DNA of 48,094 bases from NCBI GenBank assembly GCA_964457405.1, contig CAYWEP010000002.1, positions 1 through 48,094 on the forward strand. Reading direction: 5' to 3'. The notes beneath the pieces were generated by a model that saw only the letters and a list, made by a program, of their open reading frames with translations, ran no database searches and was not told the DNA's origin. Shown piece by piece: positions 1,361 through 37,512 of the stretch (its first letter is position 1; every line of letters starts with the position of its first letter). This DNA comes from an uncultured Gammaproteobacteria bacterium. Its GTDB lineage: Bacteria; Patescibacteriota; Microgenomatia; Levybacterales; UBA12049. The position numbers and the translations under genes are program-made.

Positions 1361-1412
1361 TGATTGTCACCTGTGATTGTCACCTGAAAGTGATTGTCAC
1401 CTGAAAGGTGCA
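1361..1412. repeat. Three copies of the 13-mer TGATTGTCACCTG (1361, 1374, 1391), ending in the hairpin CACCT-GAA-AGGTG (1398-1410)
   Basis: Read directly from the sequence. The segment 1398-1412 (CACCTGAAAGGTGCA) is the exact reverse complement of 2157-2171. Confidence 0.8.
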
Positions 1413-1469
1413 ATAGCCTCGTCGCCTCTTGAATTTCATTTTCAGAATTGATATATTCAAATATAAAGT

Positions 1470-2147
1470 ATGCCGGATATTAGGGTACCATTGGTAAACG
1501 GTGAATATTACCATATTTTTAATCGAGGAGTAGCGCATCAACCAATATTTCTTCGGCAAAGAGATTATGAACAGAGCATGCTTGCTTTGGCTTACTACCG
1601 GTTCAAAGACCCTCCCATTCGTTTATCCCGCTTGAAAGAATTAGGGAGAGAACGACAGCAAGAAATTCTTACTCAACTTACGACACGCAATGAAACGCTT
1701 ATTCGAATTATCAGCTTTGTTTTTATGCCAAATCATTTTCACTTCCTGTTACAACAAGCTACAGAAAATGGTATCTCAAAGTTCGTAAGCCAGTTCAGCA
1801 ATAGCTGCACAAAATATTTTAATATGAAATATCAAAGAATCGGACCATTATTGCAAGGGGTATTTAAGGCTGTACGGATTGAAACGGATGAACAGCTGCT
1901 CCACGTGTCCCGATATATTCATTTAAATCCACTAGTTTCATTTGTTGTAAAAGATGACGATTTTCTTTCCTATCCCTGGTCGTCTCTTGAGGAGTATCTG
2001 CGGGGAAAATCAAATCTGGTCTTTCTCGATCCAGTATTGTCTCACTTTTCCTCCCCAGAAGATTATAAAACGTTTGTTTTAGATCAAGCAGATTACGGAA
2101 AGAAATTGGAACAAATAAAGCATTTGTTACTTGAGCAATTCAAGTAG
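1470..2147 (+). CDS. IS200/IS605-type Y1 HUH transposase-like protein, REP-associated tyrosine transposase (RAYT)-like
   Basis: The HUH motif is in FVFMPNHFHFLLQ. The catalytic Tyr context is SRYIHLNPL. The N-terminus YHIFNRG is typical of the Y1_Tnp family. It is a single gene of 225 aa with no tnpB partner. Confidence 0.75.
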   Translation: MPDIRVPLVNGEYYHIFNRGVAHQPIFLRQRDYEQSMLALAYYRFKDPPIRLSRLKELGRERQQEILTQLTTRNETLIRIISFVFMPNHFHFLLQQATENGISKFVSQFSNSCTKYFNMKYQRIGPLLQGVFKAVRIETDEQLLHVSRYIHLNPLVSFVVKDDDFLSYPWSSLEEYLRGKSNLVFLDPVLSHFSSPEDYKTFVLDQADYGKKLEQIKHLLLEQFK

Positions 2148-2156
2148 CGATCCTGT

Positions 2157-2173
2157 TGCACCTTTCAGGTGCA
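2157..2173. repeat. Perfect hairpin TGCACCT-TTC-AGGTGCA immediately 3' of the RAYT gene
   Basis: 7-bp stem with a 3-nt loop. It is an inverted copy of 1398-1412. Confidence 0.8.
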
Positions 2174-2203: not shown

Positions 2204-2291
2204 TGGTAGCCGAGGAGGGGGTCGAACCCACATGATCTTTTGGATCACACGCTCTTGAGGCGTGCGCGTCTGCCAGTTCCGCCACTCGGCC
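2204..2291 (-). tRNA. tRNA-Leu, anticodon CAA, long variable arm, encoded CCA
   Basis: The minus strand reads GGCCGAG-TG-GCGG-AACTGGCAGA-CGCG-C-ACGC(C)-CTCAAGA-GCGTG-(variable arm)-GTGGGTTCGACCCCC-CTCGGCT-A-CCA. The anticodon loop is CU-CAA-GA. Position 1/72 is G1-U72, so the 5' end may be off by 1 nt. Confidence 0.9.
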
Positions 2292-30323: not shown

Positions 30324-31460
30324 TTACCTAAGTTTTTCCAAGAAAAAGTCGAATATCCACTCAGTGTCTTGCGGCCCAGGCGTTGCTTCCGGGTGGAATT
30401 GGACCGACATGAAAGGTAATTTCGTGTGGATAATGCCTTCATTTGAACCGTCATTGGCATTTTGGAACCAGGTTTTAAATCCCGACGGGATTTCGTCTAC
30501 GGCAAAGCCGTGGTTTTGTGTTGTGATGAAGCATCTATTTGATCCGGCCATAAGGCAGGGTTGATTCTGGCTTCTGTGGCCGAATTTGAGTTTTTTTGTA
30601 TCTCCTCCTGCTGCAAGACTTAGGAGCTGGTGGCCAAGACAGATACCCAGAAGCGGAATCTTTGCATCAAGCGCTTTTTTGGTTGTTTTGATTGTGATAT
30701 CAGCATATTTTGGATCTCCCGGGCCGTTTGAGACGACAATACCGTCAAATTTTTTCACCTGGAAGGAGTCCATTCGGCCACCTTCCAGGTGGTTTGGCTT
30801 AACACCTACACCTTCTTTCAGGATTTCATTCAGTCTTTTTCCATCGGTGAAAGGGTCAAAATCCCACGGAACCATTAGGCCATTCACACCCCGATGTGTC
30901 AGGCAACGCAGCATATTTCGTTTGCCTCCGCAGTCGATGTAGATGACCGTTTTGCTCTTCTTTGGATCAGTTGTTTCACTGAGCAGAAGTGTTGGTTCTT
31001 TCACGCAGACCTTTGCGACGAGATTTTCCTTATTAGGATCGTAGAACGGAATATCCTTGTTAAAGACAATTTTTCCAAGTTTTGCGCCTTCATCCCGAAG
31101 CTTTTGTGTTAAAAATCGTGTATCTTTTATTTCAAGCGCCGGGATACTTTCGTCTCTGAGCCATTGAGCAAGTGTTCTCTTGCTTTGAAAATGGGATGGT
31201 GTATCGATATAGTTACTGACAATGAGGCCTGAGACTTTTATGCTATCTGATTCCCAGAATGTACTATCAGGAACGCCGTAGTTGCCTATGAGTGGATATG
31301 TGAGGATGAGGATTTGTCCTTGATACGAGGGGTCGGTAAGGCCTTCCGTATACCCAACCATGCCGGTTGAGAAAACTGCCTCCCCAGCCCTTGGGATCTC
31401 TGCCCCAAAGCTTTGCCCTTCAAAGACTGATCCATCCTCAAGGATGAGTTTGCCGATCAT
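30324..31460 (-). CDS. carA: Carbamoyl-phosphate synthase small (glutaminase) subunit
   Basis: MIGKLILEDGSVFEGQSFGA, GICLGHQLL (catalytic Cys) and VQFHPEA. Confidence 0.9.
   Translation of the reverse strand: MIGKLILEDGSVFEGQSFGAEIPRAGEAVFSTGMVGYTEGLTDPSYQGQILILTYPLIGNYGVPDSTFWESDSIKVSGLIVSNYIDTPSHFQSKRTLAQWLRDESIPALEIKDTRFLTQKLRDEGAKLGKIVFNKDIPFYDPNKENLVAKVCVKEPTLLLSETTDPKKSKTVIYIDCGGKRNMLRCLTHRGVNGLMVPWDFDPFTDGKRLNEILKEGVGVKPNHLEGGRMDSFQVKKFDGIVVSNGPGDPKYADITIKTTKKALDAKIPLLGICLGHQLLSLAAGGDTKKLKFGHRSQNQPCLMAGSNRCFITTQNHGFAVDEIPSGFKTWFQNANDGSNEGIIHTKLPFMSVQFHPEATPGPQDTEWIFDFFLEKLR
30756..30792. repeat. REP-like inverted repeat inside carA: CACCTGGAAGG (30756-30766) and CCTTCCAGGTG (30781-30791), including the hairpin CCACCT-TCC-AGGTGG
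   Basis: The two 11-mers are perfect reverse complements. The core CACCT-N3-AGGTG equals the RAYT-flanking hairpins. It encodes ..KPNHLEGGRMDSFQVKK.. in a loop about 23 aa longer than in E. coli or B. subtilis CarA. Confidence 0.6.
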
Positions 31461-32711: not shown

Positions 32712-33557
32712 TTATAGCATACTCTTTTCCGAAGCAATAAGGACATTTTTCAGAAGCATCGCGACATTCACCGGGCCGATGCCGCCTGGGATCGGCGTGT
32801 AATAAGAAGCGATGTTTTTGATATCATTTTCTTCATAGTCTCCATGCAGTTTTCCGTCACTTCCTCGATGCATGCCAATGCCGATCAACACAACACCTTT
32901 TTTCAGGAAATCTGCTTTTATAATTCCTGATTTACCGACGCAGGAGATGATAATATCTGCTTGCCGCATTACTCCCGTGGGATTTTCTGTTTTGCTGTCA
33001 ATAGTCTTCAGTGCAATGGCGAGTTTTTGTAATTTGGCAATTATCGGTGCGCCGCCGGTCTCACCTTTACCGATGACGACAATTCGTTTTGCCGCTAACC
33101 ATTCTGTTAAGGTTCCACCTTGTACAAGGTGGAACCTTATAGTATCGAGTGCGTGTATCGCTGCTTCTGCGATTGGTGGTGTGAATGAAGAGTCAATGTG
33201 AAATCCGTCGACGTCTTTTTTTGGATCAGTATTGTCTACGAGTTTTTGTGTATCAATGTGGCCTGGAAGCGGCTGTTGGACGACTATTGCATGGACGAGC
33301 GGATCCTGATTGAGCTTGAGAATTTCTGTGAGTAACTGGTCTGTTGTCGCGTCTTCTCCATACATCTGTACGGTAACGAGTGCGCCTATTTCTTCTCCTT
33401 TCTTTTGCTTTTGTTTGACATATGCATGAGACGCCTGGTCATTCCCAACGAGCATGACGACAAGGTGTGGGGTGATCTGTTTTTTTTTGAGTTTTTCAAT
33501 GCGTTTTTTGAGGTCAGCAAAGATAGTAGAGGCAATTTCTTGACCGTCAATTCTCAT
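32712..33557 (-). CDS. folD: Bifunctional methylenetetrahydrofolate dehydrogenase/cyclohydrolase
   Basis: MRIDGQEIASTI..., YVKQKQK, DVDGFH and PGGIGPVNVAMLL. The ATG at 33557 lies 1 nt after the gyrA stop. Confidence 0.9.
   Translation of the reverse strand: MRIDGQEIASTIFADLKKRIEKLKKKQITPHLVVMLVGNDQASHAYVKQKQKKGEEIGALVTVQMYGEDATTDQLLTEILKLNQDPLVHAIVVQQPLPGHIDTQKLVDNTDPKKDVDGFHIDSSFTPPIAEAAIHALDTIRFHLVQGGTLTEWLAAKRIVVIGKGETGGAPIIAKLQKLAIALKTIDSKTENPTGVMRQADIIISCVGKSGIIKADFLKKGVVLIGIGMHRGSDGKLHGDYEENDIKNIASYYTPIPGGIGPVNVAMLLKNVLIASEKSML
33109..33138. repeat. Perfect 30-bp palindrome AAGGTTCCACCTTGT|ACAAGGTGGAACCTT inside folD
   Basis: Read directly from the sequence. It is exactly 10 codons (..RFHLVQGGTL..). 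This FolD segment is about 12 aa longer than the equivalent E. coli segment between TP.G and VVIG. Confidence 0.8.
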
Positions 33558-33558
33558 G

Positions 33559-36500
33559 TTATGCTCTTTCAATGCAAGTTGCGGATGCAACTTTGTCTGA
33601 TTTGTCCGAGAAGCGCATGAGGATAACGCCTTGTGTATCACGAGAAAGCTTAGGGACTGACGTAATATCCAGCTTCACGACCTGCCCTTTTTTCGAGGTA
33701 ATAATAATTTCAGCGGTTCCAGCCGGAATAACCTGTGCCATCGCAACCTTCCCAGTTTTATCTGTTACTTTCGCTACCTTTATCCCCTGCCCTGCCCTGC
33801 TTTGGCCACGGAAGAGATCGACATTTGTCTTTTTCCCAAGGCCATTTTCCATGATGGTTAGAAGATCGGGCTTATCTCCCTTGGCTATGACATCCATGCC
33901 GATAACTTCATCGTTGCCAATAAGTTTTATTCCCCGAACACCGGTTGTTGCGCGTCCCATGGGTCTTGCTGATCTTTCATGGAACCGTATTACTTTTCCA
34001 TCTTTTGTGACGATAAAGACATCATCATCGCCTGTTGTGAGGTTGCTCCATATCAGCTCATCGCCAGCGTCAAGTTTTATAGCAATAATACCGCTCCTTT
34101 TGATATTTTCAAACTCAGAGAGAGCAGATTTCTTGACCGTGCCTTTTTTCGTAGTGAGAAATACATATTTCCCTTTTTGATCTTTCAGGCTGTACGTTAC
34201 CAGCGACTCGACTTTTTCACCTGACTCAATATTCAATAGGTTAACAATTGCTGTGCCCTTGCTGACTCGTGAGCTTTCGGCTATCTCAAACGCTCGGAGT
34301 TGATAGACTTTTCCTTTATTGGTGAAGAAAAGGATGTTGTCATGTGTTTGGGCAAAGCGGATATACGCAATCGCATCCTCTTCTTTTATCTTCATGCCGG
34401 TAACGCCTTTCCCGCCGCGATTTTGCGTATGGAAGCTATTAAGGGATTGGCGCTTTATATAACCGGTGTTCGTCATCGTGATAACTGTCGGTTCGTTCGG
34501 GATGAGATCTTCCTCTGAGAATTCGCCGACTTTGCTTTTGTACACTTTGGTACGCCTCGGATCAGCATATTTCCCCCTGATGTTTTGCAGCTCGTCTTTT
34601 ATCACGTCAAGAATTTTTTCAGAATGTGCTAGCAAGTTCTCTAAATAGGCGATGGTTTCTTTGACCATGAGGAGCTCGTCTTCAATTTTTTGTCGCTCGA
34701 GTGCTGCGAGGCGGCGAAGCTGCATATCAAGGATTGCTGTTGCTTGCATTTCAGATAGTTTAAATTTGCTCATCAGGTTATTCTTGGCGTCTTCCTGGGT
34801 TCTTGATTCGCGGATAGTTTTTATAACCGCATCAATATGATCTACTGCAATTTTCAACCCCTCTAAAATATGCAGCCGCGCCTTTGCCTGTTTGAGTTCG
34901 AATTCCGATCTTCGTCTGACAACGAAGTAGCGGTGTCTGAGGTATTCTTCAAGAATCACTTTTAAGTTGAGCGTTTGCGGCGTGCCGTCAACGAGCGCAA
35001 CGATATTCACCGGGAATGTCGTCTGGAGGCTTGTAAATTTAAAGAGATTATTTAGGATCTTCTTTGGGATTGCATCGCGTTTCAGCTCGATAAAAATTCT
35101 GAGTCCCCGCCTGTCCGATTCGTCACGAAGGTCGGTGATCCCTTCTACTTTTTTATCCTTTGCCAAGTCTGCGATACGCGCGACGAGTTGTGCTTTATTG
35201 ACCTGGTATGGTAACTCTGTCACGATGATAGCAGATTTTCCCTGCCCGATATCTTCTATATCTGCTTTCCCGCGAATGGTAATCTTTCCGCGGCCGGTCA
35301 TATACGCATTTTTAATCTCCGCGCTATCATAGATGCTGCCTGCGGTTGGAAAATCAGGTCCTTTGATATACCCCAAAAGTTCATCGATTGTAACAGATGA
35401 GGTGAATGAGGCAGAGGGGCCAGGAGAGCCAGAAGGGACATAAGAAGCCTCCCCGTTTGGCTCTTTTGCTTGTCCTTCAGGGTGAACCTTCAGGGTGAAC
35501 CCCTCGGAGTCCTGTACCGCTTCTGGTACGGGGCGAAGCGGGGTCCCACTAGACTTCTTTATAGTGGTTTTTCTGATCATAAAGATGATCGCGTCGATGA
35601 CTTCACCGAGATTGTGGGGTGGAATCTTGGTCGCCATGCCGACAGCAATACCTTCTGATCCCATGAGGAGGAGATTTGGAAGCTTGGCAGGTAAGAAGAC
35701 AGGCTCCTTGAGCGTCGCGTCAAAATTCTCCGCGTACTCAACGGTATTCTTATCAATATCAATGAGCATCTCAGCCGTGATTGTGGCCATGCGGGCTTCT
35801 GTGTTGTGGTTAATAAAGCCGTTCGCGACAAATGAGTGGCAGGCGCTCTCAACTTTGAGCGAATAGACACGTTTTCTCTCTCCGTTTGTTACGGTCTCAA
35901 TTTTGTCAAAGACATAATTATTTGCCAAAAGATTTGAAAATAAGGTTTGTATATCTGGCTGCAACTGAGAAATAACAGGAACACTGACTGTTTGGCTGTG
36001 TTGGGAAAGACCGTTGTATCTATCAAAGTTATGTTTATAAACAAACGCTCGAATATTGTCGTAGGAAAGCGTTTTGTCAAGAACAGAGTAGATATAGTCT
36101 TTTAAGAACGGAACGAAATCGAAAAGGCTACTGTCTTTTTTCAATTGCTCAAGAATTCGTTGTAGTTTTTCTTTTTTTCGCTTAGAAAGAAAGCCAATAG
36201 CGTTTTGGAATTCTTTATAATTTTTTCTTCCACGAAGATAGAGTTTGTATACTCCTCGATGACGATCAAATCGCTTCGTCCCTAAAATGCCAAAACGCAT
36301 TAAAAGAATTTGCATGTCCTGTACCAAGCACTCGCTCTTTGATATGCAGGAAAGCTCAATCATTTTTCGACTACTACTACTTATTGAGCCGTCTCCTTCA
36401 AAATAGGCTTGCAAAAATGCTTTAGCTACATGTTTTGGCGACTTAAGGAGTAAAGGAGGGATACGTCGCTTTGCGGATTTATGAGGAGCAAGTCCGATAT

Positions 36501-37512
36501 TTCTGAGGAATGCAATGACATACAGTGAATGGATTTCGATCCGATAATATGGCATCCTACCGTAGGATGATGGTTCTTTTTTAAAGATATGAAGTCGTGT
36601 ATCAGGAAACGTACGTTGCCACTCACTGACAAATTGCGCAATCCATCTCTCGTCACTGTTCCCGAACTCAAGTTTTGTTGGCGCTGCGAGGCTGCCTTCT
36701 GCGATAAGACTCCCAAGTAAAAAGGCGAGACTTTTGGAGAGCGTTTTAGGCAGTTGCTTTACCTTTGTACGCGGATTGCTTATGTTCGGTTTGTATTTTT
36801 CAAGGGAAATTTCCTTTTCTGGCCAAAGAAGATTTGGTGTTCTATCCAACACGGCTATATCGCCGGGTTTTATGTGTGCTAACATCTTCCATCCAAACTG
36901 TGGTTTTCCTGACTCATCTTTTGTCCAAATGAGCACAGGATGATTGTAGGAGCCTTCGAGGCGAAAGCCGTGCCCTGTCGTTAGTGCAATAGTTGGATGT
37001 ATTCCGCTATCAAACCACTTGGATGCTTCATGGATTTTTTTATTGATCGAGAGAACTGATATATTTACTGATTCACTAGCATTATGAGCAATCGATTGTA
37101 TCGGTTCTAACCCATTGTTTGTTACGACAAGGGTTTCTCCGGTGACGCAGTAACGCATGGCCGCAGGCGGATCTCCATCAATCGAACCGAAATTTCCCTG
37201 CCCATCAATCAAGGGGTAGCGCATGGCAAAATCCTGCGCTAGGCGTACCAGAGCATCGTAAATTGGCATATCGCCGTGCGGATGGTATTTTCCCATGACC
37301 TCCCCGACAATTTTTGCGCTTTTTGCATACTTGGCGCTATGAGACAATCCCATTTCGTGCATTGCGTAGAGAATACGTCTGTGTACCGGTTTTAGTCCGT
37401 CTCTGACGTCTGGTAGCGCACGGGCAACAATGACAGACATGGCATAGTTGAGGTACGCCTTCTTCATCTCATGGGTAATAGCAACTGCTTGAATTTTGCC
37501 GATTTGAGCCAT
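33559..37512 (-). CDS. gyrA: DNA gyrase subunit A, interrupted by an intein and carrying a second low-complexity insertion
   Basis: [32 protein letters not shown]|C...HN|[13 protein letters not shown] and C-terminal beta-pinwheel repeats. The full ORF is 1317 aa and the extein is 868 aa. Confidence 0.95.
35395..35556. repeat. Repeat-derived in-frame insertion in gyrA (about 54 codons)
   Basis: It contains the tandem CCTTCAGGGTGAA x2 and GGTACGGGGCGAAGCGG, which resembles GGTACGGGGCTTCGCTC in the pyrC element. It encodes [55 protein letters not shown], where E. coli GyrA has about 8 residues. Confidence 0.6.
35803..37149 (-). mobile_element. GyrA intein (449 aa) with a LAGLIDADG homing-endonuclease domain
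   Basis: Cys1 (TGC, complement of 37147-37149) follows AAMRY. Block B is SYNHPVL. The LAGLIDADG motifs are [14 protein letters not shown] and [14 protein letters not shown]. The C-terminal sequence is [11 protein letters not shown], followed by a +1 Thr (TEARM). Confidence 0.9.

Follow-up and report, generated by a model that had tools for sequence, protein, structure and literature searches.

Positions 1361-2173 of the DNA stretch analyzed in this work (48,094 nt of contig CAYWEP010000002.1, assembly GCA_964457405.1, forward strand; referred to as the window) are likely to form a TIRtron, consisting of an intact gene for an HUH/Y1 single-strand DNA endonuclease/transposase of the TIRYT kind and of its cognate terminal inverted repeats (TIRs) of about 38 nt. 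The assembly, termed G000, comprises 1.24 Mb in 115 contigs, is 83% complete, and stems from a small groundwater bacterium of the Candidatus Levybacteria (Patescibacteria/Microgenomates, candidate phyla radiation, CPR). The TIRYT/TIRtron arrangement is itself known (Di Nocera et al. 2013, PMC3733652); what is new is its presence in the Patescibacteria/Microgenomates lineage. A literature search of a limited paper collection yielded nothing relevant tying CPR/Patescibacteria to repetitive extragenic palindromic (REP) sequences or to the insertion sequence (IS) IS200.

The transposase gene and its product

The gene at 1470-2147 (plus strand) is intact and encodes a protein of 225 aa, containing MPNHFHFLL and YIHLNP, for which the public annotation is just "transposase". 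The protein scored 31.9 bits against Pfam Y1_Tnp (PF01797; gathering cut-off, 23 bits), and all five full-length Y1 genes of the genome exceed this cut-off. H89 and H91 make up the HUH motif, and Y149 is the catalytic tyrosine. Relatives of the protein were found in Levybacteria, Daviesbacteria, Gottesmanbacteria, and other Microgenomates. Among 53 relatives, Y14, H15, H89, H91, G125, Y149, and N153 are invariant, and the consensus contains the segments FMPNHFHFLL, GPLFQG, SRYIHLNP, and YPWSS; the window protein has LLQG where this consensus has FQ. The N-terminal part of the protein contains a YHIFNRG motif, and its 70-aa tail is helical in the AlphaFold model (predicted local distance difference test, pLDDT, 94; predicted template modeling score, pTM, 0.89).

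The initial annotation had proposed a single-gene HUH/Y1 enzyme that is closer to the RAYTs than to IS200, and this is borne out by both profile and fold comparisons. When a family profile was compared with the PDB, the E. coli TnpA-REP structure 4ER8 ranked first (E 5e-4), and the ISDra2 TnpA was matched with an E value of 7e-3. A Foldseek search with the AlphaFold model also placed 4er8_A, TnpA-REP in complex with a REP hairpin, first (E 3.2e-7, target TM 0.67), followed by IS200-type TnpAs at E values of about 2e-4 (top matches 4er8, 2xma, 2a6m, and 2xm3). A single-sequence phmmer search of the window protein against the PDB returned marginal matches only (E 0.4).

Terminal repeats

The gene is enclosed by an inverted hairpin repeat, as had been noted initially. 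The inverted match is exact over 16 nt (1398-1413 versus 2156-2171) and, if a single 3-nt indel is allowed, covers about 38 nt (1398-1435 versus 2137-2173). The left TIR (1398-1435, plus strand) opens with the hairpin CACCT-GAA-AGGTG (1398-1410), part of CACCTGAAAGGTGCA at 1398-1412, which is followed by a conserved inner box, CAATAGCCTCGTCGCCTCTTGAATT. The right TIR (2137-2173, minus strand) is the inverted copy of 1398-1435. Its hairpin, TGCACCT-TTC-AGGTGCA (TGCACCTTTCAGGTGCA, 2157-2173), lies 10 nt past the stop codon, and at its inner end, this TIR takes in the final codons of the gene along with the TAG stop (2145-2147).

Seven such units were aligned, namely, the two flanks of the gene, two solo copies located elsewhere in the genome, the upstream flank of a Y1 gene fragment on contig C59, and both flanks of a paralogue on contig C53 of the congener G001 that is 60% identical to the window gene product. 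The hairpin and the inner box are common to all of them, with ACCT..AGGT..AG..TCG..C.T as invariant positions and AAYAG-nn-TCG-..-CCT as the pattern of the inner box. The stems of probably orthologous units differ by a compensatory change, with CGACC/GGTCG at C59 and CCACC/GGTGG at G001:C53.

Upstream of the left hairpin, three direct copies of TGATTGTCACCTG (1361-1373, 1374-1386, and 1391-1403, plus strand) are present, as the initial annotation had stated, and these are the only exact copies in the 1.24-Mb assembly. Each copy is composed of the 5' flank and the left arm of the hairpin, and the second and third copies fall within a 17-nt duplication, TGATTGTCACCTGAAAG. Tandem half-hairpins followed by a hairpin were also found on contigs C63, C59, and C21, at G001:C53, and on contig C11 of genome G022. 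As a guess, slippage or successive rounds of cleavage and rejoining at the hairpin may have produced these arrays.

A promoter-like site (TTGAAT, 17 nt, TATATT; 1429-1457, plus strand) was identified as a consensus match only, with a TG preceding the -10 box. Its -35 box falls within the left repeat, at the inner end of that repeat, and TTGACA occupies the equivalent position behind the hairpin at C21, C45, C59, and G001:C53.

Placement among RAYT-like enzymes

The group to which the window gene belongs is the largest among the RAYT-like enzymes and the least understood, and to our knowledge, no substrate is known for any of its members. In the classification of TnpA_Y1 enzymes by Quentin et al. 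2018 (PMC6006769), subclass 2.1 is characterized by NH[YF]H or NHVH, FQ or W[EQ], Y[IV]HLNP or YIELNP, an SS tail motif, and a length of about 238 aa (Table 1 of that survey). This subclass corresponds to RAYT group 1 (Bertels et al. 2017, PMC5581495) and "probably" to the TIRYTs of Di Nocera et al. (PMC6006769). The signature of the family studied here, NHFH, FQ, YIHLNP, and WSS, fits subclass 2.1 as given in that table.

Scores and phylogeny led to the same assignment. Reference sequences were those printed in Additional file 5 of PMC3733652. The family profile scored 61-118 bits with 12 long TIRYTs and 7-55 bits with eight classical RAYTs. Maximum-likelihood analysis of 48 sequences gave a tree in which a branch with a support of 99/93 separates the 12 long TIRYTs and all 25 CPR sequences from the classical RAYTs and three short acidobacterial TIRYTs. 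The CPR sequences form a single clade (support 100/100) on a long branch (length 1.51), with the TIRYTs gbm_2474, dau_2153, and rba_2408 as the sister group of this clade (93/85). Because of its signature, its profile scores, and its place in the tree, the window gene is assigned by sequence to the TIRYTs, within a CPR-specific clade.

A canonical RAYT/TnpA-REP (NF047646; subclasses 2.2 and 2.5) was considered and rejected: the window protein scored 44.9 bits with the NCBIfam RAYT equivalog model NF047646, below the 80-bit cut-off, which is passed by none of the five paralogues of the genome, and in the tree it is set apart from the reference RAYTs by the 99/93 branch. The GT[AG]G foot was found neither at the flanks, where the feet are TTGT/CAAT and GTTG/ACAT, nor in the seven-unit alignment. 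The proposal of a REP/RAYT arrangement of the proteobacterial type was therefore not sustained, given the 44.9 versus 80 bits and the grouping with TIRYTs/subclass 2.1. The phylogenetic placement that had been suggested as a check put the protein on the TIRYT side of the 99/93 branch and not among the classical RAYTs. The score with the IS200 NCBIfam model was 17 bits, far below the RAYT score. An IS200/IS605 identity was also rejected on the basis of the class-2 Y...NP motif (YIHLNP) and the length of 225 aa, in place of Y---Q and about 150 aa.

Copy number, paralogues, and history of the locus

The repeat unit of the window gene is present in four copies in the assembly, namely, the two flanks and the solo copies C17:154-170 and C63:2776-2815. 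Both solo copies are intergenic, are distant from any paralogue, and retain the hairpin and the inner box. The repeat is not a high-copy REP, with 4 copies versus tens to hundreds for canonical RAYTs. Undercounting due to assembly breaks was considered and dismissed, as the terminal 500 nt of contigs hold no excess of core hairpins (4/32 versus 9.3% expected, p 0.35).

The genome encodes five full-length Y1 genes, that is, the window gene and four paralogues, and one fragment at a contig end. These paralogues share 27-48% identity with each other, and there are therefore no IS-like duplicates. Several of them are flanked by their own type of hairpin. The paralogue at G000:C70:2252-3385 is unusual in encoding 377 aa, including a C-terminal extension of about 200 aa with a hydrophobic stretch; the long form also occurs in genomes G019 and G023, and no matching hairpin was found in the flanks of the C70 gene. 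Contig C17 opens with two copies of a repeat of about 24 nt, AAAAyTGCGAAgATTGAGATTTCC (G000:C17:1-50), and it may be that the assembly broke at this point within a more extended tandem array, some 100 nt ahead of the solo unit.

The gene for tRNA-Leu(CAA) (2204-2291, minus strand) has its 3' end 30 nt from the right hairpin, at the distance reported initially. The slot next to this tRNA gene is variable, and both congeners of G000, G001 and G002, possess def in place of the transposase gene. The best congener match to the window protein is 60% identical, versus 86-94% for neighboring housekeeping proteins. These comparisons show that the gene has not been conserved vertically at this site. In G001, a 94-aa GIY-YIG-like gene (L108, G001:C32, locus 2602-2886) is found in addition, across the tRNA gene from this slot, between tRNA-Leu and a NIF3-like gene, two genes that are just 56 nt apart in the window.

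In another reading, which we consider unlikely, the whole of 1361-2173 would be an autonomous IS200/IS605-like IS that was newly inserted beside tRNA-Leu and has the hairpins as its ends. The occupation of the syntenic slot by def in both congeners and the 60% identity of the best congener match would agree with it, as would the patchy distribution of the gene, with 0-9 copies per genome among 31 genomes (G000 and 30 relatives); moreover, RAYT group 1 is the more IS-like among the RAYT groups (Bertels et al., PMC5581495). Yet a second similar copy was not found in the genome, the best paralogue being 48% identical, so that the multiple identical IS copies named initially as a sign of an ordinary IS200 were not encountered. 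YIHLNP is a class 2 motif and not the Y---Q of IS200, a search for TnpB as the IS605 partner found none above the family cut-off in the genome, and solo repeat units occur without a gene. The end hairpins are not on the same strand: the left loop reads GAA, the right one reads TTC, and the orientation of the flanks is inverted, such that matching hairpins are placed on opposite strands. The comparison with sister genomes that had been proposed for finding an empty site did not deliver one: with def and the GIY-YIG gene there instead, neither a clean empty site nor a target duplication is definable in G001 and G002.

Association of genes and hairpins in relatives

Flanks were compared at 74 loci with related genes, taken from the genomes of other Patescibacteria. 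In 48 of the 74 loci, the upstream flank has a hairpin (score of at least 12) in common with the downstream flank, versus 2.7% of mismatched flank pairs. By contrast, the main survey of Quentin et al. (PMC6006769) did not find REP-like structures or hairpins next to subclass 2.1 genes. The type of hairpin stem follows the protein clade: a CACC[CT] core was present upstream in 26 of 39 flanks at 45% protein identity or above and in 10 of 35 below.

Across the 31 genomes, the count of CACCT-N3-7-AGGTG correlates with how many of these genes a genome has (Spearman 0.66 overall, and 0.74 and 0.75 when two subsets are taken separately). Hairpins average 10.5 in the 19 genomes that possess the gene, versus 1.5 for a reversed-pattern control, and 3.7 in the 12 genomes that lack it, with 3.2 for the control.

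These counts bear on another explanation, according to which the flanking hairpins are purely regulatory, with an operator/promoter on the left and an RNA-stabilizing or -terminating element on the right, are not substrates for cleavage, and have nothing to do with the dispersed look-alikes. The position of the -35 box within the left repeat, the recurrence of the hairpin-to-promoter layout in paralogues, and the start of the right hairpin 10 nt behind the stop codon are in line with such a role, and E. coli REPs are known as 3' RNA elements. However, hairpin counts drop to background in genomes without the gene, solo units are distant from paralogues, related hairpins show insertion polymorphism in carA, and the same 38-nt unit is inverted on the left and right, which is more than regulation needs. 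A terminator was ruled out for the right hairpin, as a terminator-like site was not found there and a T-run is missing after it. Autoregulation would also be compatible with a TIRtron. A purely regulatory role appears distinctly unlikely.

Core-motif families

The initial annotation had pointed to related motifs at 751-767, in carA (30756-30791), in folD (33108-33139), and in gyrA (about 35474-35499), and had recommended a genome-wide count. All of these sites exist, the gene names were confirmed with Pfam, and the core motifs were found to exceed the expectation from Markov-4 simulations: CACCT-N3-7-AGGTG occurs 19 times versus 1-4 in simulations, CACCTT..AAGGTG 9 times versus 0, and CACCC..GGGTG 13 times versus 0-2.

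When the 32 core hairpins were sorted according to the extension of the stem, the loop, and the flanking sequence, four families emerged, which ruled out that one core corresponds to one family. Family A is the unit of the window gene, with its 4 sites. Family B is a 30-nt palindrome, AAGGTnnCACCTT-N4-5-AAGGTGnnACCTT, with nine copies of the exact pattern and looser ones; its nn positions vary in a compensatory fashion, two copies flank the paralogue on contig C110, and the folD palindrome is a member. Family C is CCACCTGGAAGGTGG with its flanks; it includes the carA element, and its matches at the G001:C53 paralogue are the flank hairpin and the repeat unit beside it. Family D consists of CACCC/GGGTG hairpins that are often paired, as in the double hairpin at 728-767.

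As judged by sequence, the motifs in carA, in folD, and at 751-767 thus belong to other families and are not copies of the repeat of the window gene, as had initially been assumed; its unit has 4 copies, all extragenic, and the others match other families. A single REP family that was mobilized by the window gene and spread in frame into carA, gyrA, and folD is therefore very improbable. All sites have a CACC(T/C)...(A/G)GGTG core that is enriched genome-wide, which speaks for a single family, but the in-gene elements differ outside this 5-nt core in stem extension, loop, and flanks and match the families of other paralogues (C110 and G001:C53), and the gyrA tandem is not a hairpin.

The family D double hairpin (CACCCTTGGGGTG and TGCACCCCAGGGGTGCA; 728-767, folding z -3.3) is intergenic, between a serine-hydrolase gene and maf. 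Similar doubles were found on contigs C92, C105, C12, and C16, and single CACCC..GGGTG hairpins flank the paralogues on C45 and G002:C26. The congener G002 lacks both this double hairpin and the serine-hydrolase gene (141-701); there, the flanking sequences are only about 17 nt apart, so that the hairpin at 728-767 lies at the edge of an indel.

Proposed function and comparison with known systems

For the TIRtron proposed here, a mechanism can be outlined by homology with the E. coli TnpA-REP and with the TnpAs of IS608 and ISDra2. The enzyme would bind the hairpin in single-stranded DNA, for example, at replication forks, and Tyr149 would cut beside the hairpin, with His89 and His91 holding a metal ion; the ends could then be rejoined. 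Cutting and rejoining may seed, move, or maintain copies of the enzyme's own hairpin unit. Binding, cleavage, and mobilization of DNA are accordingly to be regarded as predicted activities of the window enzyme, and the overlap of the promoter-like site with the left repeat suggests that the gene may be autoregulated. The window gene would form part of a wider set of divergent paralogues with their own hairpin types, some of which are in frame in genes. Its activity in G000 is low or strongly selected against, with two solo copies only, both intergenic.

Several observations weigh against this interpretation. A copy number of just 4 gives weak support to a role of the window paralogue in spreading repeats. 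The ends are inverted, and the same hairpin is therefore on opposite strands, which does not fit an IS200-style single-strand excision of the unit; at the loci in relatives, the orientation of the flank hairpins is not fixed (16 inverted and 12 direct). Both flank hairpins are short and marginally stable, with 5- and 7-bp stems and folding z values of about -2. The published TIR motif GGGGWSAS, present in most but not all published TIRs (PMC3733652), is best matched by CAGGTGAC (the reverse complement of GTCACCTG) at six of eight positions, as judged by eye. A helix-turn-helix (HTH)-like C-terminal domain (DnaA_C, HTH_23, HTH_28), described in subclass 2.1 (PMC6006769), was not found in the window protein by Pfam at E values of up to 1. 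Finally, the p values of the cross-genome comparison are optimistic because related genomes are not independent, and relatedness was ignored.

Among the known systems, the unit shares with TIRYTs/TIRtrons the length class and the signature NH[YF]H, FQ, Y[IV]HLNP, and WSS, partly self-complementary TIRs that overlap the 3' end of the gene, a small dispersed family of the gene's repeat, and the coexistence in one genome of divergent paralogues with differing repeats. It differs by its CPR lineage, the partial GGGGWSAS, the lack of an HTH tail detectable by Pfam, and the tandem half-hairpin arrays that adjoin the hairpin.

Another system with clear parallels is the REPtron, that is, E. coli TnpA-REP/RayT/YafM (PDB 4ER8) with REP/BIME, or the RAYT-REPIN of Pseudomonas. 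4ER8 is the best structural and profile match, the class-2 Y...NP motif is shared, the gene is located between inverted copies of its cognate hairpin, hairpin types are paralogue specific, and related hairpins occur in genes. The differences lie in the protein (225 aa here, with the YHIFNRG motif and the long tail, versus 150-165 aa), in copy number (4 versus tens to hundreds), and in the GT[AG]G foot, which was not found. By homology, the window unit would be expected to work like a REPtron. With the IS200/IS605 TnpAs (IS608 and ISDra2), it has in common the HUH/Y1 fold, the catalytic residues, and hairpins at the ends, whereas the Y---Q motif is not matched, the hairpins are on opposite strands, and the PDB matches are weaker than that with TnpA-REP.

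In the window itself, the result is mostly ordinary, as the unit is of a known kind and present in few copies. The wider observation is that the TIRYT group is expanded in Microgenomates, with several divergent paralogues per genome of about 1 Mb that are paired with clade-specific hairpins. This pairing of genes and hairpins offers concrete enzyme-substrate pairs for the study of the TIRYT group, and the label "transposase" in CPR gene calls masks a multifamily system.

Palindromes within coding regions

The claim that REP-like units stand in frame in essential genes was upheld in part: translated palindromes are present in carA and folD, but the gyrA tandem is no hairpin. The carA element is a 36-nt hairpin (CACCTGGAAGG...CCTTCCAGGTG; 30756-30791, minus strand, z -6.2) of the CCACCTGGAAGGTGG family. 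It forms part of a clean 42-nt (14-aa) in-frame insertion that is present in G000 and G001 and absent from G002, from G003, which belongs to another genus, and from the further comparison genome G013. The folD element (33108-33139, z -8.9) is a perfect palindrome with a 14-bp stem that is translated as RFHLVQGGTL, and the resulting loop has the same length as in several relatives' FolD.

Palindromes translated in frame in conserved genes are also a feature of intragenic REPs and of the Rickettsia palindromic elements (RPEs), as cited in PMC3733652, and the 14-aa insertion in carA, polymorphic among congeners, is like them in this respect. The palindromes of folD and of an F420-0:gamma-glutamyl-ligase-like gene differ from them in occupying the native number of codons. 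With regard to CPR annotation, some odd loops in essential proteins, CarA and FolD among them, are translated palindromes.

At the same codon position of folD, G002 (L089) and G001 (L105) have another, longer palindromic insert, GAGCGGAGTCGAGAA...TTCTCGACTCGCT, which is translated as SSGVEKNSSRLASARSNN; a similar peptide is found there in G003, and a contig of G001 ends within its folD palindrome. In the F420-ligase-like gene (G000:C28:7621-7653), a 33-nt family B palindrome replaces 11 native codons, leaving the length unchanged. The identical palindrome occurs at the identical codons of a 58%-identical paralogue in G002 (L150, G002:C86), and an 80%-identical orthologue retains the native sequence.

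In both genes, the palindromes look like replacements and not insertions. One tentative idea, unlikely in our view, is that the transposase-associated palindromes of these CPR genomes may, besides inserting, overwrite equally long stretches of native codons, and do so at recurring sites. If so, Y1 enzymes would carry out a targeted, templated conversion at quasi-palindromic sites and rewrite short protein segments, in contrast to a simple cut-and-paste insertion.

In gyrA, an in-frame insertion of about 117 nt relative to G001 (35428-35544, minus strand) is located in a variable loop and contains a 13-nt tandem, CCTTCAGGGTGAA x2 (about 35474-35499). The tandem was rejected as a REP hairpin, as its self-complementary stem has only 4 bp, and any tie of this insertion to the transposase families would be speculative. 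GyrA (33559-37512, minus strand) is 1317 aa long because it contains an intein with a LAGLIDADG domain (Pfam Intein_splicing, residues 131-570; LAGLIDADG_3, residues 363-440); the corresponding frame has 1281 aa in G001 and about 830-856 aa in G002 and other genera.

A further family-B-like palindrome, at G000:C10:7692-7735, has its left half duplicated (CACCTTGTAACCTTGTACAAGGTG), which echoes the tandem half-hairpin arrays near the transposase genes.

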